From positions 1 through 44,240 of the forward strand of contig JAPLMF010000019.1 of assembly GCA_026387155.1 (NCBI GenBank): 44,240 nucleotides of DNA. The letters are read 5' to 3'. How positions within the stretch are numbered: the stretch's first letter is position 1; each line of letters opens with the position of its first letter. Below, one piece after another: positions 7,334 to 24,894 of this stretch. The DNA comes from Candidatus Omnitrophota bacterium. Its GTDB lineage: Bacteria > Omnitrophota > Gorgyraeia > 2-01-FULL-45-10. A program made the position numbers and the translations under genes. The notes under the pieces were generated by a model. It was not told the DNA's origin and did not search any database. It was given only the letters and a program-made list of their open reading frames with translations.

Positions 7334-7341
7334 GAAATTAT

Positions 7342-7352
7342 TGGCGTCCCTG
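7342..7352. repeat. att core copy 1: orphan copy of the last 11 nt of tRNA-Arg(UCU)
   Basis: tggcgtccctg is the reverse complement of CAGGGACGCCA (3' acceptor strand, discriminator and CCA). It is identical to 24818-24828. Confidence 0.8.
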
Positions 7353-7604
7353 TTATAGGGCTCTCTGATACTTATCTCTGATGTTAATGGCGCTATTATA
7401 TAACAATTGTCTATAGTTGGCGAGATATTTATAGGAATCAGAGAGATGAGTTTTTAGAGAGATGTCCGGACATGTACGTGTGCTCAAAAACTGTCCGTTT
7501 TGTCCGGTAATTTTGAGGACAAAAAGTCACAACTATCTGAAACACAACGAGATAAAAATATCCGAGGATGGAGAGACGGACATTTCTATTTTTAGAGCTA
7601 TTAT

Positions 7605-9791
7605 CTATTCTTCTCCCTTAATTATCTTTGTCATCTCGGAGGAAAGATCGCTCAAACGTTTTGCTTCTTCTCGGATTTTCTGAATTAATTCGTTTCGTTT
7701 TGATTTATCGTTAATATTGTCAGGTTTCGGTAACTCTGCAGCAGCCTCTGAAATAATCTTTAGTGGGGCTGGAAGATCAAGGGAGAATGTACTTAAAAGC
7801 AGATTTCGTAGACGTTCGCTTTCAATATCCGCTTCAGTCTTTATTGCCGTAGCAGCAAGTTGAGCGCCTTCTACTGCCGATGCGGTTTGATTTACGAATA
7901 TTTCAAGTGTATGTAGTTGATCTGGATCGGTTAACTGCTTCTCTTCTCTTGGAAATAGGCCAATAACACCTACAGTCTTTTCAGCGCCTGTTAATGGCAA
8001 ATAAATACCGCGTGAGCCGGGAAGCGTGTCCGTATCCTTTCCCGCCATCTTTTTATGCTCATATACCCACTGAGCCACAGCTTCTTCGTTTGGATTTAAT
8101 GGTAAGGCCTGAGAATCACCGAAACGGATCGTAATCCCTTTGCCCTTGGTAGGCGTAAAAATAACAGCCGGGCATTTAAAGAACTCTTGGACATAATGAA
8201 CAGATATCTGAAATATTTCGTCCAGATTGGATGTCTTGGCTAAATCCCTGTTCAAATAATACAATGCCTGAGTCCTATTTTCCCGCAGTCGCATAGCCAT
8301 GGTCTGTTGCCTAAGACGGCCTGTGAGGCTTCCTATTATAACGCCTACTACTAACATGACGCCGAATGTTATGAAATATTCAACATTGGCTACGGCAAAT
8401 GTGAAATAAGGCGGAACAAAGAAGAAATCAAAACATAATACACTTAATATCGAGGCTAGGATTGACATTCTACGTCCATATCGAAAAGCTATCCATGTAA
8501 CACTTAAAAAATAAACCATTATCAGGTTTACAAGACTTATATACTTAAATAATAGACCATCTATTGCAGTGCAAATGACAATCGTGCCGATAGTCCACAG
8601 CAGTCCTTTCCATGGAAATGGCCTAAGCGTGGGAGCTTCATGTTTCATTGGAATCTCCTGTGACTCCCCGCTCATTAAATATAAATCTATTTCGCCGCAT
8701 TTTCGCGCAAGCGCATTTATTACAGACCCAAAGAGAAATTCATGCCATTTAGGTTTCCTAGGTTTTCCGATAATTATCTTTGTGATATTCCTAGAGCGCG
8801 CATAGTCGATAATTGTTTCTGCAACATTCAAACCACTAAGAGTAATGGTTTCGGCTCCTAACCGTTCAGCTAAACGCATCATTTCGGCTATATCTGCCTT
8901 GCCTCTTCTATTGGGTATTTGAGAAATCGGATCAACATAGGCAACTATCCATTCGACACCGATACTGGAAGCAATGCGCTTTCCTGCTCGTATCAGCTGC
9001 ATGGCGCGTGGGCTCGCGCTTATACATACCAAAAGCCTATCTCTTACATTCCAAACCTTTGTTATAGAATAGGCCTGTTTATAGGATCGCATCCTAGCGT
9101 CTACAGTTCTGGAAGTATACTGAAGAGCCAATTGGCGAAGAGCAATAAGATTTCCTATCTGAAAGAAATTTTGGATTGCCCGCTGGGCTTGTTCGCCAAG
9201 GTATACCTTGCCTTCCTTGAGACGTTTAAGCAGGTCTTCAGGAGAGAGATCTACTAATTCTATATCGTCTGCCTTTTCTACAAAGGTATCTGGAACCGTT
9301 TCACGCACTGTCACGCCTGTAATCTGAGCCACAACATCATTTGCACTATCGCAGTGTTGAACGTTTAGAGTCGTATAAACATTGATGCCTGCGTCCAAGA
9401 GTTCTTCTACGTCCTGCCAGCGTTTCGGATGACGAGAACCGGAAGCATTAGAGTGAGCCAATTCGTCAACCAATATTGTAGAGGGACACCTCTTTAAGGC
9501 CGAGTCAACATCAAATTCACTAAGTTTGATATTTTTATACGGCACTTCCTTGCGAGGCAGAATTTCAAGGCCTTCTAATAAAGCGTCTGTGTCGGCACGA
9601 CCATGCGTCTCTATATAGCCGACAACGACATCGATGCCCTCTTTTTTCAGAACTCTTGCAGCTTCAAGCATAGAATAGGTTTTCCCTACTCCGGCCATAG
9701 CCCCGAAGAAGATCTTAAGCTTTCCGCGGTTAGATTCTTCGCTCTTCACCCGCGCTAGAATTTCCTCTATGTTGTTTTTTTCATTTGCCAT
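7605..9791 (-). CDS. kdpD: KdpD-like sensor lacking kinase function (KdpD-N, USP, 4 TM, GAF, degenerate HisKA; no HATPase domain)
   Basis: N-terminal GAMAGVGKTYSML Walker-like KdpD domain, a TM block and a GAF-like region. The C-terminus reads ERLRNLLLSTFSLDLPAPL where canonical KdpD has ..SHDLRTPL. The ORF ends about 50 aa later. Confidence 0.8.
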   Translation of the reverse strand: MANEKNNIEEILARVKSEESNRGKLKIFFGAMAGVGKTYSMLEAARVLKKEGIDVVVGYIETHGRADTDALLEGLEILPRKEVPYKNIKLSEFDVDSALKRCPSTILVDELAHSNASGSRHPKRWQDVEELLDAGINVYTTLNVQHCDSANDVVAQITGVTVRETVPDTFVEKADDIELVDLSPEDLLKRLKEGKVYLGEQAQRAIQNFFQIGNLIALRQLALQYTSRTVDARMRSYKQAYSITKVWNVRDRLLVCISASPRAMQLIRAGKRIASSIGVEWIVAYVDPISQIPNRRGKADIAEMMRLAERLGAETITLSGLNVAETIIDYARSRNITKIIIGKPRKPKWHEFLFGSVINALARKCGEIDLYLMSGESQEIPMKHEAPTLRPFPWKGLLWTIGTIVICTAIDGLLFKYISLVNLIMVYFLSVTWIAFRYGRRMSILASILSVLCFDFFFVPPYFTFAVANVEYFITFGVMLVVGVIIGSLTGRLRQQTMAMRLRENRTQALYYLNRDLAKTSNLDEIFQISVHYVQEFFKCPAVIFTPTKGKGITIRFGDSQALPLNPNEEAVAQWVYEHKKMAGKDTDTLPGSRGIYLPLTGAEKTVGVIGLFPREEKQLTDPDQLHTLEIFVNQTASAVEGAQLAATAIKTEADIESERLRNLLLSTFSLDLPAPLKIISEAAAELPKPDNINDKSKRNELIQKIREEAKRLSDLSSEMTKIIKGEE

Positions 9792-9805
9792 ATCTATAAT
9801 ATACT

Positions 9806-10387
9806 CTATTTTTTACTCGAATCCAAATCCATATTTACCTTCAACACATTCACAACAGGCTCTCCGATTAAACCAAAAAGACGTCCATTTGTGTTTCGAT
9901 CAATAATATTTTTTACTACATTTACAGAAAGCCCTCTATGCTTTGCAATTCTAGAAATCTGATAATACGCTCCGGCTAAACTTATATGCGGATCAAGCCC
10001 GCTCGCCGACGAAGTCACCAAGTCTACAGGTATAGGCACCTTGTTTTTGGGATCGGCTGCACGCAGTTTTTCAATACGCGCCTTCACAGTCTCTAAAAAC
10101 AGGGGATTAGATGGGCCGATGTTTGAACCTAATGACGAACTAGAATTATAAGGCACGGGCGATGTAGCCGACAGCCGTCCCCATAGATATTTAGGATCAT
10201 CAAATGGTTGTCCTATAAGGGCTGAACCAATTATTTTTCCATCTCGATATATAAGGCTACCGTTAGCTTTGGTATGGAAAAAAGCTTTAGCAATTCCTGT
10301 GACGAAAAGCGGATACAGAATGCCGGTAATTATCGTCAGGATTATGAAAACAGAAATAGCGGATCTTAGCTCTTTAAACATAGTCAT
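9806..10387 (-). CDS. kdpC: K+-transporting ATPase subunit KdpC
   Basis: 193 aa with an N-terminal TM helix and typical KdpC motifs (GSALIGQ, SGLDPHIS). It sits directly downstream of kdpB. Confidence 0.9.
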   Translation of the reverse strand: MTMFKELRSAISVFIILTIITGILYPLFVTGIAKAFFHTKANGSLIYRDGKIIGSALIGQPFDDPKYLWGRLSATSPVPYNSSSSLGSNIGPSNPLFLETVKARIEKLRAADPKNKVPIPVDLVTSSASGLDPHISLAGAYYQISRIAKHRGLSVNVVKNIIDRNTNGRLFGLIGEPVVNVLKVNMDLDSSKK

Positions 10388-10389
10388 TC

Positions 10390-12471
10390 CTATACAAAAT
10401 GTAAAGCAGCCAACAACATATCAATTAGTTTTATCCCAATAAACGGTGCAATAATACCACCTATACCATAAATCAAAAGGTTATCCCTTAAAAGGCGGTT
10501 TGCCGACATCGGTTTGTAAGGTATCCCTCGTAGAGCTAATGGAATAAGCATTATTATGATAATCGCGTTAAAAATAACCGCTGATAAAACAGCGCTTGCC
10601 GGTGTTGTAAGGTGCATTATATTAAGCGCGTTTAATTGCGGATACGTTCCAACAAATGCCGCGGGAATAATAGCAAAGTATTTTGATACATCATTAGCTA
10701 TGCTAAAAGTAGTTAACGAGCCTCTCGTCATAAGTAACTGTTTTCCAATCTCAACGATTTCAATCAATTTTGTAGGATTAGAGTCCAGGTCTATAAGATT
10801 TCCGGCCTCTTTCGCAGCCTGCGTTCCTGTATTCATGGCAACGGCGACATCCGCTTGTGCGAGAGCAGGTGCGTCATTAGTACCATCGCCTGTCATGGCG
10901 ACAAGCCTACCGCCAAGTTGCATTTCTCGAATAAGCTTAAGTTTTGTTTCAGGTGTTGCTTGCGCCAAAAAATCATCCATCCCCGCCTCGGCAGCTATAG
11001 CCGCAGCTGTTAACGGATTATCCCCTGTGATCATTATAGTTTTGATTCCCATGCGGCGAAGTTCCGCGAAACGTTCTCTTATTCCGCCCTTCACTATATC
11101 CTTCAACTGAATAACACCTAATACATTTTTATGTTCCGCTACTACAAGCGGCGTGCCGCCAGTCTTGGATATGTTCTGAATATTAAATTTCAAGTCTTCC
11201 GGGAAAAGCCCTCCGAGCTTTTTTACATATCCCTCTATCGCATCGGCTGAACCCTTCCTGATCTGCCTTCCATCACCCAAATCCACTCCGCTCATTCTTG
11301 TCTGGGCAGTAAAAGGGATAAATTTCGCTTCGAGTTCATGAATATGACGTTCTCTAATGTTGTATTTCTCTTTAGCTAATATCACTATGCTTCTGCCTTC
11401 AGGGGTTTCGTCAGATAGCGAAGCCAATTGTGCCGCATCCGCCAACGCTTCAACTGTTACGCCTTGAGCAGGTATAAAAGCCACTGCTTGTCTGTTGCCA
11501 AGAGTTATCGTGCCTGTCTTATCAAGTAACAGAACATCGACATCTCCTGCCGCTTCAACGGCACGACCTGAAGTAGCTATGACGTTTGCCTGAATCATCC
11601 TGTCCATACCGGCTATGCCTATGGCAGGTAGAAGGCCCCCTATAGTAGTTGGTATTAGACATACGAGTAGTGCCACTAATACAGTTACCGTAATTGGTAC
11701 ACCATGCCCTGAGCTTAAGACGCTGTAAATCGAAAATGGCAGAAGTGTAACCGTAGCCAAAAGGAATATTATCGTAAATACCGCAAGTAGAATGCTGAGG
11801 GCTATTTCATTGGGCGTCTTCTGTCGTTTTGCGCCTTCGACCATCGCTATCATATGATCTAAAAATGTTTCTCCAGGATTTGAGCTGACACGCACTACCA
11901 GCCAATCCGAAAGCACCCGAGTTCCTCCGGTAACAGCGTTACGATCTCCGCCCGATTCGCGTATTACGGGTGCGCTTTCTCCAGTAATAGCACTTTCATC
12001 AACTGAAGCTACTCCTTCAATAATCTCGCCGTCCATCGGTATAATGTCACCTGCTTCGACTAAAACAACATCTCCTTTTCGGATCGTCGTTGCTGAAATC
12101 GTGTCGTAACTTGAGCCATATTTTGGGCTTGAGAGTTTCTTTGCTGGAGTATCACGCCTTGCTTTCTTAAGGCTTGCTGCCTGAGCCTTGCCGCGGCCTT
12201 CGGCCATTGCCTCCGCGAAATTAGCAAATATCAATGTAAACCAAAGCCATAGCGTTATGGCCAAGATAAAACTTGCCGGCGCCTCCCCGTGTGCAAAAAT
12301 AGCCTGAACATATAACCCTGTAGTGAGAATGCTGCCTACCAATACCACAAACATTACAGGATTCTTAATTTGATGCCAAGGATTCAATTTTTTTATCGAA
12401 TCGACAATCGCCGGAATTACAATTGCGGGATCGAATAATGATTTTGTTTTATGATGTCTCTTTATTTTCAT
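10390..12471 (-). CDS. kdpB: K+-transporting P-type ATPase subunit KdpB
   Basis: 693 aa with the DKTGTIT phosphorylation motif, TGDN and [10 protein letters not shown]. Confidence 0.95.
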
Positions 12472-12479
12472 ACATAACC

Positions 12480-14225
12480 TTATAGAGAAGTAAGCATCAA
12501 ATGCTCAGCAATAGGCCCAAGCGCCAATGCCGGGATAAATGTAAGCGCACCTACAATTAATATAACCATGACCAGAAATACAATAAAAAGCGGCGTATGC
12601 GTAGGCAGTGTCCCCTGGCTTACAGGCACTATTTTTTTCCTAGAAAGTGAGCCCGCAATCGCAAGCGCAGGTATTATAAGCCAGTATCTGGCGAAGAACA
12701 TCGCTAATCCTTGAGCAATATTATAGAAAAGTGTATTCGTAGTTAATCCAGCAAACGCGCTTCCGTTGTTATTTCCTGCCGAAGAAAATGCATATAATAC
12801 TTCGCTAAATCCATGCGGCCCGGGGTTTAAGATTGAACTTTTAGCAGCAGGCACAATTACCGAAACGGCTGTGCCTATAAGAACAATCATCGGCGGTATT
12901 AGAATCATGAGAGAAGCCATTTTCATTTCATATGCCTCTATTTTCTTTCCTAAATATTCCGGAGTACGGCCAATCATAAGGCCTGAGATAAAGACAGCGA
13001 CAATAATAAATGCAATCATACCGTAAAGTCCTGAACCAACTCCGCCAAATATAACCTCTCCTAATTGCATAAGCCACATCGGAATAAGGCCGCCTAATGG
13101 CATATAAGAATCATGCATTGAGTTGACCGAACCATTGGAAGCCGCGGTTGTAGCCGTTGCCCATAAAGCGGAATTTGCGATGCCGAAGCGCGACTCCTTG
13201 CCCTCCATATTCCCACCTGGCTGCATAGCGCTTGATCTCTGGTCAATTCCTAATTTACTTAACAGAGGATTTCCCTGTTGTTCAACATGCGTACATAGCC
13301 AAAGGCATGGAATAAAAATAATTAACATGGCAGCCAGAATTGCCCAGCCCTGACGTTTGTCTTTAACCATATATCCAAATGTATAGCATAGTGCAGCAGC
13401 TATCAAAAGTATGGCCAGAACTTCCAAGAAATTTGACAGAGGCGTAGGATTCTCAAATGGATGAGCAGAATTAACATTGAAAAATCCCCCTCCGTTAGTC
13501 CCTAACTGTTTAATGGCGATCTGCGAGGCGGCAGGGCCAAGAGCAATCATTTGTTCAGACATAACTTTTCCAGTCACATCTTTAGTCGTCTCGATAAGCG
13601 CTGCTTTTACGCTCGGAGCGAATGTCTGGACAGCGCCCTGGGAAACCAATACAATGGAAAATATAATCGCCAGCGGAAGAAGTATATACAATGTTGACCG
13701 GACAAGATCTACCCAGAAATTGCCTATAGTTTCCGTTTGTTTTTGAATAAATCCTCTTATCACAGCCACAAGGACTGCCATACCTGTTGCCGCGGACACA
13801 AAGTTTTGTACGGTTAAAGTCAGCATCTGAGTAAAATAGCTTAGAGTAGTTTCACCACCGTAACTTTGCCAGTTCGTATTTGTCGCAAAGCTAACTGCAG
13901 TATTAAATGCAAGATCCGGTGTTACCGGTGGCATGGACATGGGATTTAAAGGAAGATGCATTTGAAGACGCTGAATAATATAAACGACTACTATGCCAAT
14001 AATATTAAATATCATCACTGCCACAGCATATGTTTTCCATGGCATGCTTATTTCAGGATTAATGCCAGATAAGCGATAGGTTAATCTTTCAATGGGCCCA
14101 AGCCATATGTTAAGACCTGTCGGCTTTCCTTCGTATATGCGGGCCATATAAGTTCCAAGCGGCTTAACTAATAGTACCAATACCACAAGATAGATTCCGC
14201 CTTGAATTATATTGTTCCAATTCAT
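12480..14225 (-). CDS. kdpA: K+-transporting ATPase subunit KdpA
   Basis: Polytopic protein with KdpA-type selectivity loops ([18 protein letters not shown]). I place the start at MNWNNIIQG (14225), where ATGA overlaps the kdpF stop. The 25-codon upstream extension in the ORF track overlaps kdpF in another frame. Confidence 0.9.
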
Positions 14226-14314
14226 GAAAATATCTCCGGCTTCAATAGGGCAATCAACAAATAGGCAAATAAAAGTAGTGAAATTGTGCCCCCTATCCAA
14301 TAGATAATAGTCAT
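14222..14314 (-). CDS. kdpF: KdpF small subunit
   Basis: 30-aa peptide [30 protein letters not shown]. The ...YLLxALLxPExF ending is typical of KdpF. A GAGGG SD lies 9 nt upstream, and the TGA stop overlaps the kdpA ATG. Confidence 0.8.
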   Translation of the reverse strand: MTIIYWIGGTISLLLFAYLLIALLKPEIFS

Positions 14315-14329
14315 ATTATTGCCCTCACC

Positions 14330-14410
14330 CTATAATTTGCTGCATAGCGCAATAAACACAAAAGAGGTTATCGCAAGAGACAAAATAATACCTACAAATA
14401 AAATGTCCAT
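14330..14410 (-). CDS. Second small hydrophobic peptide (26 aa) between the riboswitch terminator and kdpF
   Basis: MDILFVGIILSLAITSFVFIALCSKL, with an AAGGAAG SD 8-9 nt upstream of the ATG. Not in the ORF track because it is too short. Confidence 0.4.
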   Translation of the reverse strand: MDILFVGIILSLAITSFVFIALCSKL

Positions 14411-14425
14411 AATTTAATCTTCCTT

Positions 14426-14460
14426 AAAAACAAAAACCAGAGGATGCTTAGCTCTGGTTT
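14426..14460 (-). terminator. Intrinsic terminator (expression platform of the c-di-AMP riboswitch)
   Basis: On the minus strand: AAACCAGAG-CUAAGCAUC-CUCUGGUUU followed by UUGUUUUU, immediately 3' of the aptamer. Confidence 0.8.
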
Positions 14461-14461
14461 G

Positions 14462-14618
14462 CATTCTCTCATATTGGCTTACGGGGTTAGCTGTCGAGCT
14501 CGGGTTGAGTGACCCTAATCTACTACTCTGTAGATATTTAGATATTCGCCCTAAGGTCTGTCGTAGACCGTACTTTGGTTTCCCCGTTTCCTTCTAAATA
14601 CAGCAATTAAAAGGAATG
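14462..14618 (-). promoter_or_regulatory. c-di-AMP riboswitch (ydaO/kimA class) in the kdp leader
   Basis: The minus-strand RNA contains the class-defining blocks ACGGGGAAACC, UUAGGGCGAAUAUCU, GUAGAUUAGGGUCAC and AACCCGAGCUCGACAGCUAACCCCGUAAGCCAAUA. It is closed by CAUUC...GAAUG. The blocks match my recollection of the crystallised ydaO aptamers. Confidence 0.85.
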
Positions 14619-14634
14619 TAGCTTATTAATGTTG

Positions 14635-14663
14635 ATTATAAATCTCAAAACCCTTTGTGTCAA
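14635..14663 (-). promoter_or_regulatory. Consensus sigma-70 promoter of the kdp operon
   Basis: On the minus strand: TTGACA (14663-14658), a 17-nt spacer and TATAAT (14640-14635). The -35 element overlaps the stop of the sigma-like gene. Confidence 0.8.
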
Positions 14664-15037
14664 TATAAGATACAATCAGACTTTTTTATCTCTTCTTTTA
14701 TAAAATCAATAATGAATCCGTCAATTCTTTTCCAGATATAATAACTGAATCGGACGGGCTTTGAATTACTATGTTTGTCCTTATATCGCAAATCGTAAGT
14801 TTTAATTTTATCATAAAGGATAGGTATAGCCTGCGAGAGGATGTCTTCCCCAAAACGAACACGATAGGTTGAAAACGCTATCTTATAAATACGAAAGATG
14901 ACAAAACCTATATGGCGCAGTACAATCTCATCTTTCTTTGCCCTAGAACGTCCTTGTGCTTGTTTAATAAGCCGTCTTTCTTGATAAAGAGAAATTTTAG
15001 GATATTTTCGTATAATCTGGCGGTAAGTTTCGAACAT
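14660..15037 (-). CDS. Sigma-70 region-2-like small protein with no region 4 (element B)
   Basis: 125 aa from MFETY (the start shared with the paralog at 22290). The pattern LYQERRLIKQAQ.G...A..EIVLRHIGFV...DILSQAI..LY..I..YD......KPVRFS.YIWKRI...I.DFI resembles sigma-70 regions 1.2-2.4. Confidence 0.55.
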   Translation of the reverse strand: MFETYRQIIRKYPKISLYQERRLIKQAQGRSRAKKDEIVLRHIGFVIFRIYKIAFSTYRVRFGEDILSQAIPILYDKIKTYDLRYKDKHSNSKPVRFSYYIWKRIDGFIIDFIKEEIKKSDCILY

Positions 15038-15098
15038 AGTTGCTGTATTATACAATCCAAATATCCGAAACCAAATAAAAAATATCTCACCTATCGCC

Positions 15099-15129: not shown

Positions 15130-15157
15130 TCATGAGGTTAGAGAGGGGGTTTTGACG

Positions 15158-15613: not shown

Positions 15614-15620
15614 ATAACTT

Positions 15621-16841: not shown

Positions 16842-16848
16842 GGTTTTT

Positions 16849-17223
16849 ATGAATACGGAATTAAAATATGAATTTAAGGTCGATTTAAAGCCGGTAAGAC
16901 ATAAGTCGCGTAGATATTACATGGCTAAGATATCGAATGAGCCAAGGTTGAGGCAATATTTAGTGCTCGCGTATCAGATACAGGATGCGCTCGAGAAAAA
17001 TACCGATACTTCCCTACTTCAAGTAGCTGGATGGCTAAATATGACATACACACGTATAAAACAGATAACGAACCTGCTACTTCTATGTCCCGGAATACAG
17101 AAGGAGCTATTATTGTTAAACACAGATAAAATCCGTCAGCTTACAGAGCGTAAAATCCGCGATATAGCCAAAGAAATCGACTGGCAAAAACAGCTCTCAA
17201 CCTGGAATAACCTCACGCATTAG
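16849..17223 (+). CDS. ParB/KorB-like HTH protein (element B)
   Basis: 124 aa. SLLQVAGWLNMTYTRIKQITNLLLLCPGIQKELL resembles the ParB HTH plus the 'LL.L.P.IQ' segment. It aligns to the C-terminal ~100 aa of recombinase A. Confidence 0.5.
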   Translation: MNTELKYEFKVDLKPVRHKSRRYYMAKISNEPRLRQYLVLAYQIQDALEKNTDTSLLQVAGWLNMTYTRIKQITNLLLLCPGIQKELLLLNTDKIRQLTERKIRDIAKEIDWQKQLSTWNNLTH

Positions 17224-17317
17224 CCCATACCCCTTCCAATGTTATAAAAGAAATATCTGGTAATTTTGTGTTGTAATTTTTTTACTACATGATATACTTA
17301 TAATAGACAAAGAGGGG

Positions 17318-17695
17318 GTGATTAAAATGGATGAACGTAAAACATTCGGCTCGTATTTTAAGGATAGAAGGATAGAGCTGGGCCTGACGCTGCGCAAATT
17401 CTGCGAGAAACACAGCATGGATCCCGGAAATTTAAGTAAAATCGAAAGAGGCGTGTTGCCGCCGCCCAAAGATGAGATATTGAAGAAATATGCTCATCAT
17501 CTCAAGCTGAAAGAGGCGTCAAATGAGTGGTATGAATTCTTTGACCTTGCGGCCGCGGAATCAGGCCGGCTGCCAAAGGAGCTCAGAGAAAAAGAGATCG
17601 TGGCGAGGATGCCTTTCTTATTTCGCACAATCAGGGGTAAGAAGATCTCAAAAGAGAAGCTCGATAAGCTGATAAAATTGATCAAGGAATCGTAA
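17318..17695 (+). CDS. XRE-family HTH regulator
   Basis: 125 aa. LGLTLRKFCEKHSMDPGNLSKIERG is a Cro/C1-type HTH. A GAGGGGG SD lies upstream. Confidence 0.8.
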   Translation: MIKMDERKTFGSYFKDRRIELGLTLRKFCEKHSMDPGNLSKIERGVLPPPKDEILKKYAHHLKLKEASNEWYEFFDLAAAESGRLPKELREKEIVARMPFLFRTIRGKKISKEKLDKLIKLIKES

Positions 17696-17698
17696 AAA

Positions 17699-18295
17699 AT
17701 GTCAGATGTATTTGTTCCTTATAAAAACTACGACCATATAAAGAAGATAGCTTCGGATTTCCTGCATAAATACCATCCAAGGGATATCTTTCCCACTCCG
17801 ATCGAAGAGATCATAGAATTTAAGCTCAATATTGATATCATTCCGATCCCCGGACTTCACGAGATATTGGAAGTCGACGGTTTTATATCGGCGAATTTAT
17901 CGAATATCTCCGTAGACGAGTACGTGTATAAGCACAGGCAAGGCCGCTATCGCTTTACCCTCGCCCATGAGGTCGGCCATGCCATTATGCATGAGGATGT
18001 TTATAAACACCGCGGGTTCAATACGACCGTAGATTGGAAGGATTTTATGGAGACCTTCCCGGAAGATGAATGGGCCTGGCTAGAGTGGCAGGCGAATCAA
18101 TTCGCCGGATTAGTTCTCGTGCCGAGCCATCATCTGGAGAAGAAATTAAAACATCATTCAAAACAAATCAGGGCTTTAGGCATCAAGAATGATGACGTTA
18201 TCATGGATAGGGTCGTTGAATTATTAGCACGAGATTTTGTGGTTTCAAGAGAAGTTATATTAAGAAGAATTGATAAAGACGCCAAAAAAGCCTGA
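17699..18295 (+). CDS. ImmA/IrrE-family (DUF955) zinc metallopeptidase
   Basis: 198 aa with HEVGHAIMH (HExxH) and a downstream E...ANxFA. It starts 4 nt after the stop of the XRE gene. Confidence 0.8.
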   Translation: MSDVFVPYKNYDHIKKIASDFLHKYHPRDIFPTPIEEIIEFKLNIDIIPIPGLHEILEVDGFISANLSNISVDEYVYKHRQGRYRFTLAHEVGHAIMHEDVYKHRGFNTTVDWKDFMETFPEDEWAWLEWQANQFAGLVLVPSHHLEKKLKHHSKQIRALGIKNDDVIMDRVVELLARDFVVSREVILRRIDKDAKKA

Positions 18296-18471
18296 TTTTA
18301 CGACTAAACCACCCAAAAAGTAAACCAGAGATAAAGAGAGGTATTAAGAGGAGATCTTTGCTATATATTGACTATATCACGGTAATTCGTCGAGTTGCGT
18401 TGGTATAGACAGAATAGCTCAAACTACTTAAATATTTTGAGTTTTCTCGACGACAAATCATAACAAAGTAA

Positions 18472-18489
18472 CCGACGTTAAAACGTCGG
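18472..18489 (-). terminator. Hairpin downstream of att core copy 2 (weaker equivalent of the element-borne tRNA terminator)
   Basis: On the minus strand: CCGACGT-TTTA-ACGTCGG followed by TTACTTTGTT. Same relative position as the hairpins at 3172-3210 and 24744-24780. Confidence 0.4.
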
Positions 18490-18534
18490 CTACATTCAAA
18501 TATTCTCTACCTCTCTGTTTCGAGGCAAAATAAA

Positions 18535-18544
18535 TGGCGTCCCT
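18535..18544. repeat. att core copy 2 (junction between elements B and C)
   Basis: tggcgtccct matches the last 10 nt of tRNA-Arg(UCU). It is flanked on the left by the B near arm and on the right by the C far arm. Confidence 0.8.
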
Positions 18545-18849
18545 ATTATAGGGCTCTCTTATACTTATCTCTGATTTCGATAGCGTTATTATATAGTCAT
18601 TATCACTGATTGGCAAGAATTTTTGAAGATTCAGAGAGGCGAGTTTTAGAGAGATATCCGGACATGTCTGCGTGCTCAAAAACTGTCCGTTTTGTCCAGT
18701 ATTTTTAGGACAAAAAATCCATAACTTATTGTCATGCAGTCAAATACGAATGTCCATTGTACCAGACCCGGACATTTGTCTATTTTGCTTTCACGCTTTT
18801 ATCAAAAGTCGATAAAAGGTCCTTTAAAAATGGACATTAAGCATATCGT

Positions 18850-19341
18850 TTAATGGTGAACGAATAACTCTTTATTCTTTAATGCGGCAACTCTACCTTT
18901 CTGCAGCGTCAGCTTCTTCTGCTCATCCGCGAAAGTTGTTGTTACCTGCTTAGTCGCCGGCTGTGATCCATTGGTTGCATGAGCTTCTTCAGCCGTTGAT
19001 GTAGGCTGTTCATTTAGGGATACCTCGACATCTTTCCTCACATCCGCCATAGTTTGTTTTTTTTCGGTAAGCGTTTTATCAAGAGTTTCTTGTCTTTCTA
19101 GCTGCTTTTTTATATTCTCTTTGGCTTCATCGTCTGTAGGAAAAATATTCCGGGAAATTGTATAGCCGGGTTCGACGACAGTCTCTTCTTCTTTAATGAC
19201 CTCCTTTTCCACCGGCTGGCTTAATTGTTCCTTCGCTTTATGTATCCCTGAAAAAATCACCCACACGACCATAATTATAACCCCTATAATTATGCCAGCG
19301 CCTACCAACTTATCTGTCGAAATATTTTTATTCATGCTCAT
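18850..19341 (-). CDS. Single-pass membrane protein with a charged, low-complexity ectodomain
   Basis: 163 aa with one TM helix (GAGIIIGVIIMVVWVIFSGI). It is the last gene of the pseudopilin operon. Confidence 0.45.
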   Translation of the reverse strand: MSMNKNISTDKLVGAGIIIGVIIMVVWVIFSGIHKAKEQLSQPVEKEVIKEEETVVEPGYTISRNIFPTDDEAKENIKKQLERQETLDKTLTEKKQTMADVRKDVEVSLNEQPTSTAEEAHATNGSQPATKQVTTTFADEQKKLTLQKGRVAALKNKELFVHH

Positions 19342-19368
19342 TATCCAGGTTCTTGCTGGCTGTCTTTC

Positions 19369-20742
19369 TCAAAGTTGTTTTAGCGAAATTTTACGGTATC
19401 TTAGACCCCCGCTATCCTGCGCAGGAGTAAAAGACGGCGGTATTAAACTAGTAAGCCTATCGTCATAATATGGAATTTGAAGATAACCAAATTGCAGAGC
19501 ACCGCTTCCACTAAAACATCCAAACACGGTGGCGGACCATTGAGCCATTACTCCGCCATATTGCACCAAGTTTCCTAGCACGCCTGGAACCGCTGTCATG
19601 TTTTCTAGGTAAAATGAACCGTTGAGCGCAACTATATACGCATCGACCTCCTTATTACCTGACCCAAGATCATTAGGAAAAATAACGTTTGTTTTCGCAA
19701 CCAACCCCAATACATCGGTACTGGCAGGGTTAGGTGCGCTCGGGGAAGTATCGTGATATATTATACTATCTGAAGTCCAGATATTTTGGTCACAACCAAC
19801 CGTTACCTGACCGTTTAAGGCGCCCTTAACATCAACTTCCCCGCCCGTGACATAGATAGCGCCATTTTGGGGAATTGGCATGTTGGTAGTCGTCTTATAT
19901 TGGTTATTATTTGTAACATTCATGGTGCCGTTTGCAAGAAATTGGATGCTAGTATCGGTATGCGTCCCACCCGGGCCGCGATAATATCCGGGCTGTGGGT
20001 TTTGTGGATCATTCATATTACGGCCATCTATTAACAGCCCACTTCCTGGCTGGCTTGCGGCGGTTTTAATCGCGGTCAGTAGTGGCGCAGGGTCTGGCAA
20101 AGGAACGGGTTGAACCCCAAGCCACAGGCCCGCGTTAAACTGTGGTTGGTCGACTCCCGGGGAGTCATAGTATGATACTTGAGTGTCTGCTACAGACACT
20201 GCTCCATTAAATATAGGGTTACCGGCAACATAAAGATGATCGTTAACCTGTAGCGGACCATTAACAATATTGCCTGTTACCCAATAGGATGCATATCCTT
20301 CCCAACCGGGGTAATAACAAATTTCAGTGTTGGTAATGTAAGCCCAATGTTGAAACGAGGTTAATTGAACTGTCAACTGTAAGGTCTTTGACACACCTTT
20401 ATAGGTCCCTATAGATGTTATACCATATGTAGGCCAAGTCCCGGAAGCTAGTACCTGATAGCTCACGGCATAGCTACCCGCATCATTTGCCCCGTTGACA
20501 TTATAATTTTTACTGAAAGACAGCAGCGAAGGAGTCCACCCGCCATCCCGTAAATGTTTATAGCCATCAGCTATACCGGCATCCGCAATACAATATGCGC
20601 GCATAGCATTGCATTTTGCATACGCCAGAAATATGTCATTACTACAAATGGCAAGCAATGTCGTACAAAGAAAGATGACCAATAATAGTATCGGCAATGT
20701 CATAACTAATGCGAAGCCTCTTTTATCCACAAACGACCTCAT
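19369..20742 (-). CDS. PilX/GspK-like large pseudopilin
   Basis: 457 aa. The N-terminus KRGFALVMTLPILLLVIFL is a prepilin-like hydrophobic helix without Glu5, as in GspK/PilX. The ATGA start overlaps the upstream gene. Confidence 0.55.
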   Translation of the reverse strand: MRSFVDKRGFALVMTLPILLLVIFLCTTLLAICSNDIFLAYAKCNAMRAYCIADAGIADGYKHLRDGGWTPSLLSFSKNYNVNGANDAGSYAVSYQVLASGTWPTYGITSIGTYKGVSKTLQLTVQLTSFQHWAYITNTEICYYPGWEGYASYWVTGNIVNGPLQVNDHLYVAGNPIFNGAVSVADTQVSYYDSPGVDQPQFNAGLWLGVQPVPLPDPAPLLTAIKTAASQPGSGLLIDGRNMNDPQNPQPGYYRGPGGTHTDTSIQFLANGTMNVTNNNQYKTTTNMPIPQNGAIYVTGGEVDVKGALNGQVTVGCDQNIWTSDSIIYHDTSPSAPNPASTDVLGLVAKTNVIFPNDLGSGNKEVDAYIVALNGSFYLENMTAVPGVLGNLVQYGGVMAQWSATVFGCFSGSGALQFGYLQIPYYDDRLTSLIPPSFTPAQDSGGLRYRKISLKQL

Positions 20743-21266
20743 ACTGGATGATTCCTTAAATATGCAGAGCCCTCCACTGCGCCAAGCACTGTTTTGCCGC
20801 TTATTACTTGAGATACGCTGACATATATGCTGATACAGAGGGGAGCACCTACATTCAGTGTACCAAAAGTTAACCCCACCATAGCACCCGGCGGAGCAGT
20901 ATACAAAGTATTTTGTACCCCATTTGTATCGGAATAGATAAGCCTGGTGCCTCCATTGCTTAAAGAATATGTCCGCTTAATAACGCCGTCAGTTCCAATA
21001 AATGTAAGCTTACTGGTGTCGCTATAAAAAGTAACCGATGCGGCTTCGGAGAGGCGAAGCCCGTTTGTACAGCCTTTTCCCTCCGTTATCTTACTCATAA
21101 TAACTGCCGCGTCTCTCTGAAACGTTGCCCTAGCAATATCTGTGGCGAAGATCTGTTTTACAAGAACGAAGCCGGTCAATGCAGTGGCGAATAACGTAAT
21201 TAGCAGGGCGCTTGCGATCAGAAGCTCCGTTAAAGAAAAAGCCTTTTTATCAGATAATATTATCAT
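20739..21266 (-). CDS. Prepilin-type N-terminal domain protein (minor pilin/pseudopilin)
   Basis: 175 aa. DKKAFSLTELLIASALLITLF is a class III signal with Glu5, but Ala rather than Gly at -1. Confidence 0.65.
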   Translation of the reverse strand: MIILSDKKAFSLTELLIASALLITLFATALTGFVLVKQIFATDIARATFQRDAAVIMSKITEGKGCTNGLRLSEAASVTFYSDTSKLTFIGTDGVIKRTYSLSNGGTRLIYSDTNGVQNTLYTAPPGAMVGLTFGTLNVGAPLCISIYVSVSQVISGKTVLGAVEGSAYLRNHPV

Positions 21267-21271
21267 GGACT

Positions 21272-21730
21272 TTAGTTAAGTTGCGGTTCATTAGCTATAT
21301 CGGTAGTAAGAAACTCCTGCTTAGTTACCGGTATACCATTCATTTTTTCTTTCCAACTGACTTTGATCTGGACTGTTTTTCTATAACTACAAGTAGGATC
21401 ATTGTATGGTGGAAGAACTGTTACGGTAACGGTTGCGCCGGACATATTACAACCAATGTATGCTGGCGGCAAAAATTGTTGGTTGACAATATATGGGAAC
21501 CCGGCCACACGCTGCATATCCAATACGGTGCGGGCGGCATATATAGCCTGAAGCTTATGTTTTGAATAAGAAATGAAATATTGCTGTGTATATATAATGG
21601 CCTCAAACGATATAAACGCTATGGCTATTAACAAACAGCTTATTACCACTTCCACCAGAGTAAAACCTTTTTTATGCGATCTAGACCGTCTTATAAAGCT
21701 TAGTATCTTCATAGTTACAGCTTTTTCCAA
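21272..21730 (-). CDS. Prepilin-type N-terminal cleavage/methylation domain protein
   Basis: HKKGFTLVEVVISCLLIAIAF is a canonical G|FTLxE motif. The start may instead be the MKILSF Met at 21712. Confidence 0.75.
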   Translation of the reverse strand: MEKAVTMKILSFIRRSRSHKKGFTLVEVVISCLLIAIAFISFEAIIYTQQYFISYSKHKLQAIYAARTVLDMQRVAGFPYIVNQQFLPPAYIGCNMSGATVTVTVLPPYNDPTCSYRKTVQIKVSWKEKMNGIPVTKQEFLTTDIANEPQLN

Positions 21731-21838
21731 AATTAAGTGTATGCTGCTCTTTATGTTCCAATTGAATAATTAATTAATTCGATTCCAAGGAGATATAATC
21801 CATCCTCCCTTGTGAGCAACAGAGACTATTTATAGATA

Positions 21839-21867
21839 AGTATACCCCCCCCCTTACGTTTATGCAA
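21839..21867 (-). promoter_or_regulatory. Candidate promoter of the pseudopilin operon with a G9 tract in the spacer
   Basis: On the minus strand: TTGCAT (21867-21862), a 17-nt spacer (aaacgtaa plus G9 at 21853-21845) and TATACT (21844-21839). Confidence 0.55.
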
Positions 21868-21876
21868 ATATTTTAG

Positions 21877-22290
21877 TCACAGAGGAATTTCACAACCGAA
21901 TCCTCGCCAATCAAGGCTTTGTTGCTGTCTTTCCCCGCTAAGTTCTTCCTTTAAATAATCGATGATAAATCCATCTATTCTTTTTCATACATAGGAACTA
22001 AATCGGACGGGTTTTGAATTGCCGTATTTGTCTTTATATCGTAAATCGTAGGTTTTGATTTTAGCGTATAGAATAAATATAGCCTGAGAAAGCATATCTT
22101 CCCAGAAACGGGCGCGATAGGTAGGGAATGTTATCTTATTGATCCGGAAGATGACAAAGCCTATGTGGCGTAGGACAAGTTCGTCTTTTTTTGCCTTAGA
22201 ACGTCCCTGCGCTTGTTTAATGAGGCGTCTTTCTTGGTAAAGGGAGATTCTAGGATATTTATGTATAAGGTGGCTATAGGTTTCGAACAT
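21877..22290 (-). pseudogene. Sigma-70 region-2-like gene (element C) interrupted by an in-frame TGA
   Basis: The ORF stops at ...VRFSSYV* (TGA at 21985-21987), exactly where paralog B has Trp (..RFSYYIWKRIDGFIIDF). The same frame continues KRIDGFIIDYLKEE... to a stop at 21877. Confidence 0.7.
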
Positions 22291-22369
22291 GGCGGTATAT
22301 TATACAATTCGCATATTTGAAGCCAAACTGAAAAGAGCGAGAACCCGCCAGAAATCTGCTCCTATCACC

Positions 22370-22400
22370 TTGACTTGTGGCAGTTAGTATGGCCTATATG
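22370..22400 (+). promoter_or_regulatory. Candidate promoter of the DUF2924-recombinase operon (element C)
   Basis: TTGACT (22370-22375), a 19-nt spacer and TATATG (22395-22400). Confidence 0.35.
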
Positions 22401-22428
22401 ACATGAGGCTAGAGAGGAGATTTAAGCC

Positions 22429-22884
22429 ATGAATGAACCGATTTTATCCCAGATTATAGCGTTGAAAAATGCGCCTATTTCAGAACTCAAGCAAAAGTAC
22501 AGCGAGCTATTTGCGGGCAAAAAGACGTCTTCTGATAACAGGACGTATCTTTGGCAAAGGATCTCTTATAGGATACAGGAACTTGAATATGGCGAGCTAC
22601 CGCAAGAGGCACGAGATAAGGTTAAAGAACTGGCGCAAGAATACGACCCTATCAATAATAAGGCGCTAAGGCCAAACGCCGCAAAAAAACAGTGCCTCTC
22701 ACGCGATCAGCGTCTTCCGATACCGGGAACTATAATCACAAAAGAATATAAAGGTATTACTATAGAAATTAAAGTCCTAGAGAAGGGCTTTGAATATAAA
22801 TCTAAGGTCTATAAATCTCTTACAGCTATCGCAAAAGAAATAACTGGCTGCCATTGGAACGGGTACCTCTTTTTTAAAATGTAG
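22429..22884 (+). CDS. DUF2924-like protein (element C)
   Basis: 151-aa paralog of 15158-15613, with a GAGAGGAG SD. Confidence 0.6.
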   Translation: MNEPILSQIIALKNAPISELKQKYSELFAGKKTSSDNRTYLWQRISYRIQELEYGELPQEARDKVKELAQEYDPINNKALRPNAAKKQCLSRDQRLPIPGTIITKEYKGITIEIKVLEKGFEYKSKVYKSLTAIAKEITGCHWNGYLFFKM

Positions 22885-22892
22885 GCGACGAT

Positions 22893-24113
22893 ATGAATAA
22901 ACTTAAAAATCGAATCTATTGTGCAATCTATACACGCAAATCCACAACCGAAGGACTGGAGCAGGATTTTACATCTTTAGACGCTCAGCGCGAATCTGCC
23001 GAAAATTATATCGCAAGCCAAAAGTCCGAAGGATGGGTTATGCTGCCAACGCTCTACGATGATGGCGGCTACACCGGAGCCAATACCGATAGACCTGCCT
23101 TACAAAAGCTCATGTCAGATATTAAGAATGGCGGCATTAACTGTGTCGTTGTATATAAAGTCGATAGATTATCGCGATCGCTGCTTGATTTTACCCACTT
23201 GTTAGAATTTTTCGAAAAACATAACGTCGCGTTCGTGTCAGTTACTCAAGCCTTTAATACAAATACATCGATGGGGCGACTTACATTGAATATACTATTA
23301 TCATTCGCTCAATTTGAGCGGGAGATCATATCCGAACGCACCAAAGACAAAATGGGCGCCGCGCGCAAGAAAGGCCGATGGGTTGGCGGCATTCCCATTC
23401 TTGGCTATGATCTCGACAGGATCAACCATAAGCTCGTCATCAACCTAAAAGAAGCCGGGATTGTACGAGATTTATTCGATACCTATATCAAGGAAAAGTC
23501 ACTATTACGAACAGCTGTGATACTTAACGAAAAAGGCTATAGACGTAAGACCTATACTCCGCCAAAAGGCAAGACAATGGGCGGCCAAAAATTCCAGACT
23601 ACGACTGTGCAATATATTGTAAAGAACATTACATATACCGGCAAAATAAAATATGCCGGGGTAATATATTCCGGCCTGCATGAGCCGATCATATCCGAGG
23701 AGCTATTCCAAAAGACTCAAGAAATACTCGCCAATAATCGCGTAACGCGCAAGAAGATCGGGCATTCAAAGAATACATCCCTACTCGGCGACATCTTGCG
23801 TTGTAAGGCCTGTGGTAAAGCGATGTTTCATACCTACACGATGCGAGGCAAATATAAGTATAGATATTATGTCTGCCAAAGCGTCCAAAAACAAGGCTCA
23901 AATTCGTGTCCTACCAGATCAGTAAATGCGCAGGCTATAGAGGACGCCGCGATAGACTGTCTTCGCAAGATGCCTCAGAAAGAGTTAAAAGAAATTCTGG
24001 ATATCTGGGATGTACTATTCCCACAGCTAAAACATGAGGCATTAAAACGCATGGTTAAAGAAGTAAAATACGATGGAATAACTGGCAAGCTGGATATCGT
24101 TTTAAACCGTTAG
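22893..24113 (+). CDS. Large serine recombinase (element C)
   Basis: 406 aa. By manual count it shows about 30 substitutions relative to copy B (~92% identity). The canonical VYKVDRLSRS is intact. Confidence 0.85.
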   Translation: MNKLKNRIYCAIYTRKSTTEGLEQDFTSLDAQRESAENYIASQKSEGWVMLPTLYDDGGYTGANTDRPALQKLMSDIKNGGINCVVVYKVDRLSRSLLDFTHLLEFFEKHNVAFVSVTQAFNTNTSMGRLTLNILLSFAQFEREIISERTKDKMGAARKKGRWVGGIPILGYDLDRINHKLVINLKEAGIVRDLFDTYIKEKSLLRTAVILNEKGYRRKTYTPPKGKTMGGQKFQTTTVQYIVKNITYTGKIKYAGVIYSGLHEPIISEELFQKTQEILANNRVTRKKIGHSKNTSLLGDILRCKACGKAMFHTYTMRGKYKYRYYVCQSVQKQGSNSCPTRSVNAQAIEDAAIDCLRKMPQKELKEILDIWDVLFPQLKHEALKRMVKEVKYDGITGKLDIVLNR

Positions 24114-24121
24114 GATATTTT

Positions 24122-24496
24122 ATGGATAAAAACCTGATATATGAATTTAAAGTTGATTTAAAGCCTGTAAGGCATAAGTCTTGCCGGTATCATATGGCTA
24201 AAATCTCTAATGAGCCTAAACTGCGGCAATATTTAGTGCTGGCAATGCAGATAGATGAAACGCTTTCGGAAGGAAAGGCAAAGAACCTATATCAAATCAC
24301 TGAATGGCTTTGCATGACATATACAAGGATAAAGCAGATAACAAATCTATTACTTTTATGCCCTGAGATACAGAAAGACATATTACTGATAAATACAGAC
24401 AAAATCCGTCAGATCACAGAACGAAAAATCCGCAACATAACCAAAGAAATCGACTGGCAAAAGCAACTCTTGGCGTGGCATAACCTCCTAAAATAG
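24122..24496 (+). CDS. ParB/KorB-like HTH protein (element C)
   Basis: 124-aa paralog of 16849-17223. Confidence 0.5.
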   Translation: MDKNLIYEFKVDLKPVRHKSCRYHMAKISNEPKLRQYLVLAMQIDETLSEGKAKNLYQITEWLCMTYTRIKQITNLLLLCPEIQKDILLINTDKIRQITERKIRNITKEIDWQKQLLAWHNLLK

Positions 24497-24743
24497 CTAT
24501 CTTCTTCTGTCAAATATAAGTGGTTTAGTGATTATTTTAGCTATTTTTGCTTCTCAATATATGGACAAATCTGACGATAAATCCACTAAACCACCAAAAC
24601 ACTAAACCAGAGATAAAGAGAGGTTTCGAGAGCCTATTTTGGCCAAATACTGGCCTACCTAAGGCATTCTAGTAGAAAATAGTAATATTGATAAAATGGC
24701 TCAACCTACAGCAATATTTTGAATTTTCTCGTCGAGAAATCAT

Positions 24744-24780
24744 GAAAAAGGCCTTAGTTAATTAACAATCAACTAAGGTC
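24744..24780 (-). terminator. Intrinsic terminator downstream of tRNA-Arg(UCU), supplied by element C
   Basis: On the minus strand: GACCTTAGTT-loop-AACTAAGGCC followed by TTTTTC. It begins about 37 nt after the tRNA CCA end. Confidence 0.65.
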
Positions 24781-24817
24781 TTGTATTCTATGACTCTCTG
24801 TTTCGAGGCGAAATAAG

Positions 24818-24894
24818 TGGCGTCCCTGGCCTGATTCGAACAGGCGACCCTCTGCTTAGAAGGCAGATGCTCTATCCAACTGAGCTACAGGGAC
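24818..24894 (-). tRNA. tRNA-Arg (UCU); its last 11 nt form att core copy 3
   Basis: Reverse complement GTCCCTGTAGCTCAGTTGGATAGAGCATCTGCCTTCTAAGCAGAGGGTCGCCTGTTCGAATCAGGCCAGGGACGCCA. Anticodon loop CTTCTAA. Confidence 0.9.

Follow-up and report, generated by a model that had tools for sequence, protein, structure and literature searches.

The 44,240-nt stretch of DNA from Candidatus Omnitrophota analysed here (hereafter the window) contains at positions 7342-24827 what we interpret as two related integrative islands, B and C, inserted as a tandem array into the 3' end of the gene for tRNA-Arg(UCU), an interpretation to which we assign a probability of roughly 85%. The islands are marked by the 10-mer TGGCGTCCCT, hereafter the core, which occurs on the plus strand of the window exactly three times, at 7342, 18535 and 24818 (Table 1). 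By chance 0.05 copies are expected, and three copies were reached in none of 100 dinucleotide-preserving shuffles; together with the arm and module alignments described below, this led us to reject chance repeats as their source. Core copy 3 is the reverse complement of the final 10 nt of tRNA-Arg(UCU), encoded CCA included; copies 1 and 3 run to 11 nt (…CCCTG), and position 11 is an A in copy 2. The array is therefore bounded by an intact tRNA gene on one side and a direct repeat of its 3' end on the other, behind which follows the chromosomal gene asmA; a protein identical to its product carries the AsmA name in the database (from a Candidatus Omnitrophica metagenome-assembled genome). The original prediction, made from the bare sequence, had already listed the three copies and taken the last one for the genuine tRNA end, and exact counting, shuffling, ARAGORN and Rfam agree with it on both points.

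Two islands built on one plan

The sequences beside the cores are shared between the islands, as shown by self-blastn and alignment. The near arms, on the low-coordinate side of copies 2 and 3 (18303-18544 versus 24585-24827), are 71.7% identical over 247 nt (E 6e-25), and the far arms, on the high-coordinate side of copies 1 and 2 (7335-7528 versus 18528-18719), are 82% identical over 194 nt (E 3e-47). Both homologies had been predicted to extend over ~240 nt; this stood for the near arms, while the far arms are strongly alike for ~190 nt and only patchily from there to ~7600. The shared blocks that had been quoted from beside the core were found in the alignments as written.

Next to its near arm, each island carries a module (14691-17214 and 21944-24487; 82% DNA identity over 2.5 kb in self-blastn) with the same gene set: a sigma-like open reading frame (ORF), a DUF2924 gene, a 406-aa large serine recombinase (LSR) and a 124-aa ORF. 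LSR_B and LSR_C are 92% identical at the protein level. Gene maps and Pfam matches thus agree with the expectation that each island has its own serine recombinase beside the tRNA-proximal arm and lacks a tyrosine integrase: no tyrosine recombinase (Phage_integrase) was found with Pfam among the ORFs of B and C, nor among those of the islands at the loci L105 and L107 introduced below, and B and C contain no second, small serine recombinase by the same search.

The island cargo is compositionally foreign. GC content is 0.414-0.417 in the islands and 0.455-0.461 in the flanks, and GC at third codon positions is 0.35-0.38 in the kdp genes of B and 0.36-0.42 in the pilin-like cargo of C against mostly 0.50-0.63 in the flank genes, a drop of about 0.15; an earlier judgement by eye, that the kdp cargo is more AT-rich and differs in codon usage from the flank genes, is confirmed by these values. 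Two of the four cargo ORFs of island C have prepilin-type N-terminal motifs and resemble minor pilins or pseudopilins (Pfam N_methyl), and there are weak matches to Pfam DUF4900 and to PilV/ComGE-like NCBIfam models.

Table 1. Features of the tandem array and of related elements in the window (positions in nt; strand given where assigned)
Feature	Position	Strand	Remarks
Third module (island A)	753-3322		cut by left contig end; DUF2924 753-1316; LSR_A 1325-2935; tRNA-His(GTG) 3246-3322 (-)
asmA	4898-7333	-	chromosomal gene on far side of insertion; Pfam AsmA/DUF748; ATG 8 nt from core copy 1
Core copy 1	7342-7351		distal junction, asmA flank versus far arm of B
Island B	7352-18534		11.2 kb; kdp operon cargo
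Far (D) arm of B	7352-7600		attP-type half-site GTTATAGGGCTCTCTGATACTTATCTCTGAT; CAGAGA/AGAGAG motifs; six TGTCC/GGACA repeats at 7463-7582
Outward promoter-like site of B far arm	7395-7423	-	TCGCCA-17-TATAAT, 10/12 match; points through core into asmA
kdpD-like sensor	7605-9791	-	Pfam KdpD, Usp, DUF4118, GAF; without histidine-kinase domains
kdpC	9806-10387	-	named from ORF translation and label in original prediction
kdpB	10390-12471	-	named as kdpC
kdpA	12480-14300	-	named as kdpC
Cyclic di-AMP riboswitch in kdp leader	14461-14615	-	Rfam RF00379, 71.5 bits, E 1.5e-14
Sigma-factor-region-2-like ORF, B	14660-15055	-	131 aa; divergent from recombinase operon
DUF2924 protein, B	15155-15613	+	Pfam PF11149, E 6e-40
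LSR_B	15621-16841	+	406 aa; Resolvase, Recombinase, Zn_ribbon_recom; without coiled-coil; VDQLSR
124-aa ORF, B	16849-17223	+	ParB/Noc-like (predicted); matches detached C-terminal domain of fused relatives
XRE-type helix-turn-helix protein, B	17318-17695	+	Pfam HTH_3
ImmA/IrrE metallopeptidase, B	17699-18295	+	Pfam Peptidase_M78
Near (P) arm of B	18296-18534		CCAGAGATAAAGAGAGG; terminator hairpin (predicted) 18468-18493 (-); attP-type half-site CTCTCTGTTTCGAGGCAAAATAAA
Core copy 2	18535-18544		internal junction, near arm of B versus far arm of C; structurally attP-like
Island C	18545-24817		6.3 kb; pilin-like cargo
Far (D) arm of C	18545-18800		promoter-like TTGCCA-17-TATAAT 18616 to 18588 (-); TGTCC/GGACA array
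Island C cargo	18850-21730	-	four ORFs: 163, 457, 175, 152 aa
Sigma-like ORF, C	21985-22290	-	101 aa; ~30 aa shorter than B copy (translations compared)
DUF2924 protein, C	22429-22884	+	Pfam PF11149, E 2e-39
LSR_C	22893-24113	+	406 aa; same Pfam domains as LSR_B; catalytic motifs intact (YTRKST, VDRLSR); without coiled-coil
124-aa ORF, C	24122-24496	+	ParB/Noc-like (predicted); model pLDDT 85; PHROG 14161 'recombinase'
Near (P) arm of C	24580-24817		terminator hairpin (predicted) 24752-24778 (-), just downstream of tRNA
tRNA-Arg(UCU)	24818-24894	-	ARAGORN; Rfam tRNA, 70.8 bits; last 10 nt = core copy 3

Empty and occupied sites in other genomes

To follow the locus in relatives (loci outside the window carry L numbers), AsmA homologues were traced to their contigs. 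In four contigs of one relative (L108-L111; AsmA 81% identical), rph, rdgB, tRNA-Pro and tRNA-Arg(UCU) are followed by asmA, whose ATG lies 8 nt after the tRNA (…CAGGGACGCCA-CTAAATTC-ATG), and in a second relative (L112) the site is likewise unoccupied. The original prediction had deduced an empty site of the form CAGGGACGCCA-ATAATTTC-ATG, had recommended a search of related genomes for the tRNA-asmA junction and would have counted it against the islands if relatives carried kdp and the pilin genes here without core repeats and none of them had an empty site; the junction exists in L108-L111 and L112.

Other relatives are occupied. L105, from an independent metagenome, has two islands in tandem at tRNA-Arg(UCU) with the cores TGGCGTCCCT, TGGCGTCCCC and TGGCGTCCCT; each contains the module, one together with a 1505-aa MutS-like gene and the other with a 1176-aa B12/radical-SAM gene. 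A single 9.1-kb island with helicase and Tricorn-like cargo lies between two cores in L107, and its recombinase (79% identical) possesses the coiled-coil missing from the window enzymes. In L006, where the tRNA-proximal junction alone is available and the contig stops within the cargo, a module with a 93%-identical recombinase stands beside tRNA-Arg(UCU); the near arm is divergent and the cargo is a repetitive protein. L002 (AsmA 80% identical), the single locus returned by the AsmA scan of genome contigs, has ~980 nt between tRNA and asmA, including a near-arm piece (74% over 128 nt) and, immediately upstream of asmA, the promoter-like site of the far arm (86% over 37 nt), with neither a recombinase nor a second core. 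It was considered as a near-empty site and rejected as such, being a decayed island of which an arm piece and the promoter remain. The internal core of L105 has a C at position 10 and its tRNA copy keeps the T, which would place the crossover within core positions 1-9, unless the C is a later mutation. The asmA and tRNA junctions of the window itself are reproduced identically in independent assemblies from three other sequencing runs of the same strain.

Some further peculiarities of these loci should be mentioned. The tRNA-Arg(UCU) gene is uninterrupted in the window, L107 and L108; in L002 (38-680), L006 (7398-8047) and L105 (about 19340-20000) it is split in the anticodon loop by a ~650-nt insert, which encodes a PD-(D/E)XK (PDDEXK_5) endonuclease and resembles a group I intron carrying a homing endonuclease, a class to which Rfam did not assign it. 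The sequence GAGTGGTACA (L002 729-738; L006 8190-8199) lies directly against a tRNA 3' end, that of tRNA-Arg in the first case and that of tRNA-Pro in the second, within a ~110-170-nt stretch rich in GGTACA/GGTGCA repeats; it may be the arm of another small tRNA-end element. A block of L107 (4557-13810) comprising tRNA-Pro, tRNA-Arg, the island and the distal core is inverted relative to rdgB/rph in comparison with the window; its distal core is 1 nt from the rdgB stop, at the spot of the tRNA-Pro 5' end in the window, and the outward promoter there would read antisense into rdgB. In L112 a GIY-YIG nuclease ORF (3-248) is found just upstream of tRNA-Arg(UCU).

Organisation of the arms

Aligning five near and five far arms, we found the best-conserved part to be a ~65-bp block consisting of CTCTCTGTTTCGAGGCAAAATAAA, the core and GTTATAGGRCTCTCTNATACTTATCTCTGAT, a size matching that expected for the element-borne attachment site (attP) of a serine integrase. 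A palindrome at the core edge, CCCTATTATAGGG, was considered as crossover centre and rejected, since L105 does not preserve it and nothing in the tRNA corresponds to it. Compared by eye, the alignments show near- and far-arm subtypes reassorted among the elements of different genomes.

All five far arms contain the promoter-like T(T/C)GCCA-17-TATAAT when the alignment is judged by eye, the promoter scan having covered the two arms of the window; between the site in the far arm of B and the asmA ATG, 8 nt past the core, the scan found no terminator. Each near arm of the window contains a predicted terminator hairpin on the minus strand, 40-50 nt past the core, and the stem sequences of B and C are unlike. 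Upstream of the promoter-like site, the far arm carries 6-9 TGTCC/GGACA repeats in a conserved layout that includes the palindrome TGTCCGGACA. The two far arms of the window are the two densest 150-nt stretches of the contig for this motif (6 each versus a background of 0.24), and CAGAGA/AGAGAG motifs are densest at the arms as well in a contig-wide scan.

The recombinase family and its accessory proteins

The resolvase domains of LSR_B and LSR_C match Pfam with E-values of 1e-36 to 1e-37, and the Recombinase (PF07508) and zinc-ribbon (PF13408) domains score above cutoffs in both enzymes and in LSR_A, the recombinase of a third module near the left end of the contig. Omnitrophota contain many homologues, which fall in the alignment into three architectures: with a ~100-aa coiled-coil insert and a short tail, without insert and with a short tail, and without insert but with a ~125-aa C-terminal extension. 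The coiled-coil in the zinc ribbon is missing from the window LSRs and is seen as the ~100-aa insert in, for example, the homologues P0013 and P0052; homologues that are 79% and 66% identical possess it, and of 60 parsed homologues 25 have the insert and 35 do not. For the LI integrase, removal of the coiled-coil is reported to leave a weak activity that is similar on attP x attB and attL x attR substrates (PMC5499577).

The 124-aa ORF aligns with the C-terminal extension of the fused relatives (36-44% identity), so that in islands B and C this extension forms a separate gene. It has no Pfam match; most of the top ~30 PDB matches of its AlphaFold model are ParB/Noc/Spo0J/KorB/SopB DNA-binding domains, with probabilities up to 1.0 and TM-scores of 0.55-0.59, yet Foldseek E-values of just 0.1-1. 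By its predicted structure it resembles a ParB/Noc-type DNA-binding domain. The model of the DUF2924 protein of island C (pLDDT 84) found no PDB fold match (best E 0.68); a remark in the literature relates DUF2924 partly to the RAMA DNA-binding domain. The sigma-like ORF of B has weak matches to a PHROG 351 sigma factor (E 2.5e-5) and to FliA in NCBIfam (E 0.022) and no match in Pfam.

The third module, island A, did not figure in the original prediction. LSR_A (536 aa) is without coiled-coil and has the ParB-like tail fused; between it and tRNA-His(GTG) lies a near-arm-like spacer with a hairpin, which ends as …CCTCTCTCTATGAGAAGTAAAAAAT/TGGGGTAGG at the tRNA 3' end. The same arrangement occurs in L105 and L106, and in two further contigs (L114, ENA ERZ27248895; L115, JGI 3300028299) arrays of islands with DUF2924 and serine recombinase genes end at tRNA-His(GTG), their cargo comprising a type I restriction-modification system and an MvaI/BcnI-type system; within the DNA fetched for these two contigs no repeat of the tRNA-His end of at least 9 nt was found. 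The contig of the window opens with 16 T in a row (1-16), probably an assembly-end artefact. More distant members (37-55% identity; L026, L037, L038, L044, L070, L079, L073, L016 and L017) stem mostly from IMG/VR prophage contigs, L016 and L017 from metagenomes, and lie 0.4-2.2 kb from a tRNA-Asn(GTT), tRNA-Met or tRNA-Ser gene, an adjacency which suggests that they, too, target tRNA ends. No convincing second copy of a tRNA 3' end was seen near the tRNA-Asn, -Met, -Ser or -His members within the DNA fetched. All this points to a large clade of serine recombinases associated with DUF2924, as yet uncharacterised, whose targets appear to be the 3' ends of tRNA or tmRNA (transfer-messenger RNA) genes.

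Proposed mechanism of integration

We infer that the catalysing protein is the LSR, which would exchange strands between the attP of the element, proposed as …CTCTCTGTTTCGAGGCAAAATAAA, the core TGGCGTCCC(T) and GTTATAGGRCTCTCT…, and the tRNA end. A crossover in the first 9 nt of the core would leave the tRNA intact and place a duplicate of its final 10 nt at the far junction. Where the site is empty, asmA lies 8 nt behind the tRNA and must therefore be transcribed with the tRNAs, so an island would otherwise orphan it; the insertion would separate asmA from the tRNA operon, and the putative promoter of the far arm would replace the lost drive. The predicted terminator of the near arm may end the tRNA transcript, or transcripts arriving from the outward promoter of a neighbouring island. 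LSRs without coiled-coil may, with directionality relaxed in this way, accept hybrid sites, which would allow a second insertion beside the first and the excision of B, C or B+C. If the elements are still mobile, island B, whose own LSR is probably inactive (see below), would depend on the 92%-identical enzyme of C.

How such an enzyme might choose its sites is a matter for speculation. A 'two-handed' serine integrase is conceivable, in which the ParB/Noc-like domain grips the TGTCC array 100-230 bp from the crossover, the DUF2924 protein (RAMA-like) binds CAGAGA/AGAGAG and the resulting attP-specific complex selects the site pairs; we hold this to be a tentative idea, with the odds against it. 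If true, it would mean that the arm-site logic of lambda integrase has been reinvented in a serine recombinase, and it would explain why occupied sites stay usable and tandem arrays grow.

Alternative explanations

That the array is a metagenome assembly artefact, a chromosome joined to circular elements via short repeats, might be suspected of a contig from a metagenome-assembled genome, the more so as independent Logan contigs break inside the repeated arms. The shared core measures only 10 nt, however, and arms of 72-82% identity are too divergent to collapse; the circle of a single element would yield P(B)-core-D(B), whereas P(B)-core-D(C) is observed; and with the asmA and tRNA junctions recovered in three other samples and the same tandem layout present in the independent L105 metagenome, we regard an artefact as highly improbable. 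We think just as little of the idea that another enzyme, such as a tyrosine integrase encoded elsewhere, performs the integration and the LSR module serves resolution or inversion. Although tyrosine integrases classically target the 3' ends of tRNA genes and no biochemical link connects the LSR with the sites, the DUF2924-LSR-124-aa module and the arms are the sole content common to five bounded islands, none of which encodes a tyrosine recombinase; family members adjoin tRNA or tmRNA ends in other lineages, and a 10-nt core is short for tRNA islands of tyrosine integrases and typical of LSR sites. A more serious competitor, if still a doubtful one, is the arrival of B and C at once, their circles having fused (by the recombinase acting on two attP sites or by homologous recombination of the 82%-identical modules) and integrated via one attP, so that the other attP survives as the internal junction. 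That junction (P arm of B, core, D arm of C) indeed has the exact structure of an attP, the reassorted arm subtypes imply that elements recombine with each other, and canonical serine integrases are reported not to target hybrid sites (PMC3783163). The window sequence fits both a joint arrival and serial insertion; LSRs lacking the coiled-coil, on which restriction to attP x attB depends, may well permit serial insertion, and the different cargo pair in the same layout in L105 indicates that arrays form repeatedly and independently.

Several observations weigh against an array assembled by its own recombinases as proposed above. Neither a circular or excised junction nor an empty site from the same species turned up: the contigs found via AsmA and the 124-aa ORF show integrated junctions only, and in an exact-protein look-up three proteins encoded next to the junctions (ImmA, the 163-aa ORF and KdpD) were not on record in other assemblies. 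A dyad-symmetry scan of the reconstructed attP and chromosomal site (attB) gave no convincing inverted half-sites centred in the core, and consequently the crossover dinucleotide could not be placed. It should also be noted that promoters and terminators were called by their match to consensus sequences, in a phylum for which promoters have yet to be characterised. The far flank varies (asmA in the window, but a Pyr_excise gene in L105 and the stop codon of rdgB in L107), and either the far half of attB is poorly constrained or the loci were rearranged. The near-arm half-site of L006 has an indel and an inserted GIY-YIG gene (6950-7228), hence not all copies look functional. LSR_B, finally, has a Gln at residue 92 (window 15894-15896; VDQLSR), where (V/I)DRLSR is found in LSR_C and in 119 of 120 homologues; we take this position to be equivalent to the catalytic Arg68 of gamma-delta/Tn3 resolvase, and because this Arg is replaced LSR_B is probably catalytically inactive. 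Counting the shortened sigma-like ORF of C, each island has one apparently damaged gene. Much of this would suit islands that are fixed relics, with arms kept only for the promoter and terminator that they supply to neighbours: the lost Arg of LSR_B, the truncated ORF of C, the failure to find excised forms and the decayed copies elsewhere (the near-arm piece and promoter of L002, the disrupted near arm of L006). We nevertheless find relics unlikely, given that LSR_C is intact, as are the DUF2924 and 124-aa genes of both islands, that the core-adjacent half-sites are the best-conserved arm part in five elements, and that occupancy and cargo vary among close relatives, empty sites included, which argues for recent turnover.

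Relation to known systems

The closest described system is formed by the ssrA islands of Dehalococcoides, which stand in tandem, have a 20-bp repeat of the 3' end of tmRNA as their borders and carry a CcrB-like module (DsiB) at the proximal end (McMurdie et al. 2011, PMC3146451). Varied low-GC cargo, an LSR, the tandem order, a short 3'-end repeat and a gene-proximal module are common to both, and some members of the Dehalococcoides array lack a working module. The phyla differ, and so do the target and repeat (tmRNA and 20 nt there, tRNA-Arg(UCU) and 10 nt here) and the module, which in Dehalococcoides combines DsiB with the small serine recombinase DsiA and RecF/ParBc/Mom-like genes and here consists of DUF2924, an LSR without coiled-coil and a ParB-like ORF. 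The islands of the window lie at tRNA-Arg, about 16 kb from the tmRNA gene of the contig, and are no members of the ssrA island family. That tmRNA gene (41305-41717) has a predicted tag peptide of unusual length, ADKYNVPATVNELLNTMQVVPSAYVPAALAI.

The closest annotated relative of the LSR (40.7% identity) is encoded by Acidithiobacillus phage AcaML1, in which Gp4, Gp3 and Gp2 follow in the order seen here: a DUF2924 homologue (E 3e-24), a 'large subunit' LSR and a ~125-aa 'small subunit', although Gp2 and the 124-aa ORF show no significant similarity when compared pairwise. In PMC3826726 (Table 2), AcaML1 is reported as integrated at ssrA, which encodes tmRNA, with direct repeats of 10 nt; this prophage measures 59 kb, and no tandem array is reported for it, whereas the cassettes described here, with their cargo, measure 6-11 kb. 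The LSR of Wolbachia phage WO (39% identical) is preceded by a 143-aa ORF, gp30, which by its size alone could be a DUF2924 protein, and in a WO region of Wolbachia wStri a DUF2924 gene has been reported directly upstream of a recombinase. The tycheposons of Prochlorococcus are likewise small, cargo-carrying and tRNA-adjacent, may form tandem junctions and bring niche-adaptive genes; 910 of 937 encode tyrosine recombinases and a minority an LSR, and many have replication genes (Hackl et al., 10.1101/2020.12.28.424599). They lack the DUF2924/ParB-like module and belong to another host phylum.

In the staphylococcal cassette chromosome elements (SCC, SCCmec), which like the tycheposons are functional analogues of the islands, variable cargo is also moved by LSRs (CcrAB, CcrC) into the 3' end of one conserved gene. 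SCC elements form tandem composite arrays with short repeats between them. Among NCBIfam models CcrB matches the LSR best, at 190 bits against a cutoff of 900, so that the enzyme is no Ccr orthologue; with rlmH (orfX) as target and two recombinases in SCC, and a tRNA and one recombinase with non-catalytic partners here, the islands do not belong to this group either. Phage serine integrases (phiC31, Bxb1, A118/LI, SPbeta) share the catalytic, recombinase and zinc-ribbon domains and the short crossover identity with the window LSRs; in the phage enzymes a coiled-coil in the zinc ribbon, absent from the window LSRs, enforces the attP x attB pairing. The targets of model phage serine integrases are usually protein-coding genes, and as a rule no reusable site stays behind. 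The phenomenon is thus known in outline, and what sets the present case apart is the true tRNA target, the compact enzyme without coiled-coil, the detached ParB-like domain and the promoter and terminator (both predicted) in the arms.

Biological implications

The array provides a clean, cross-validated example of the way in which adaptive genes are acquired and exchanged among uncultured Omnitrophota, here for potassium uptake and pilins, in relatives for repair, restriction and radical-SAM functions. A small cassette docking at a tRNA end appears to be built for little harm, since it brings along a putative terminator for the tRNA and a putative promoter for the displaced downstream gene. 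Natural LSRs of ~400 aa without coiled-coil and with conserved targets could interest genome engineers, and they raise the question of how the direction of recombination is controlled; the family to which they belong is widespread in an uncultured phylum and mechanistically suggestive.

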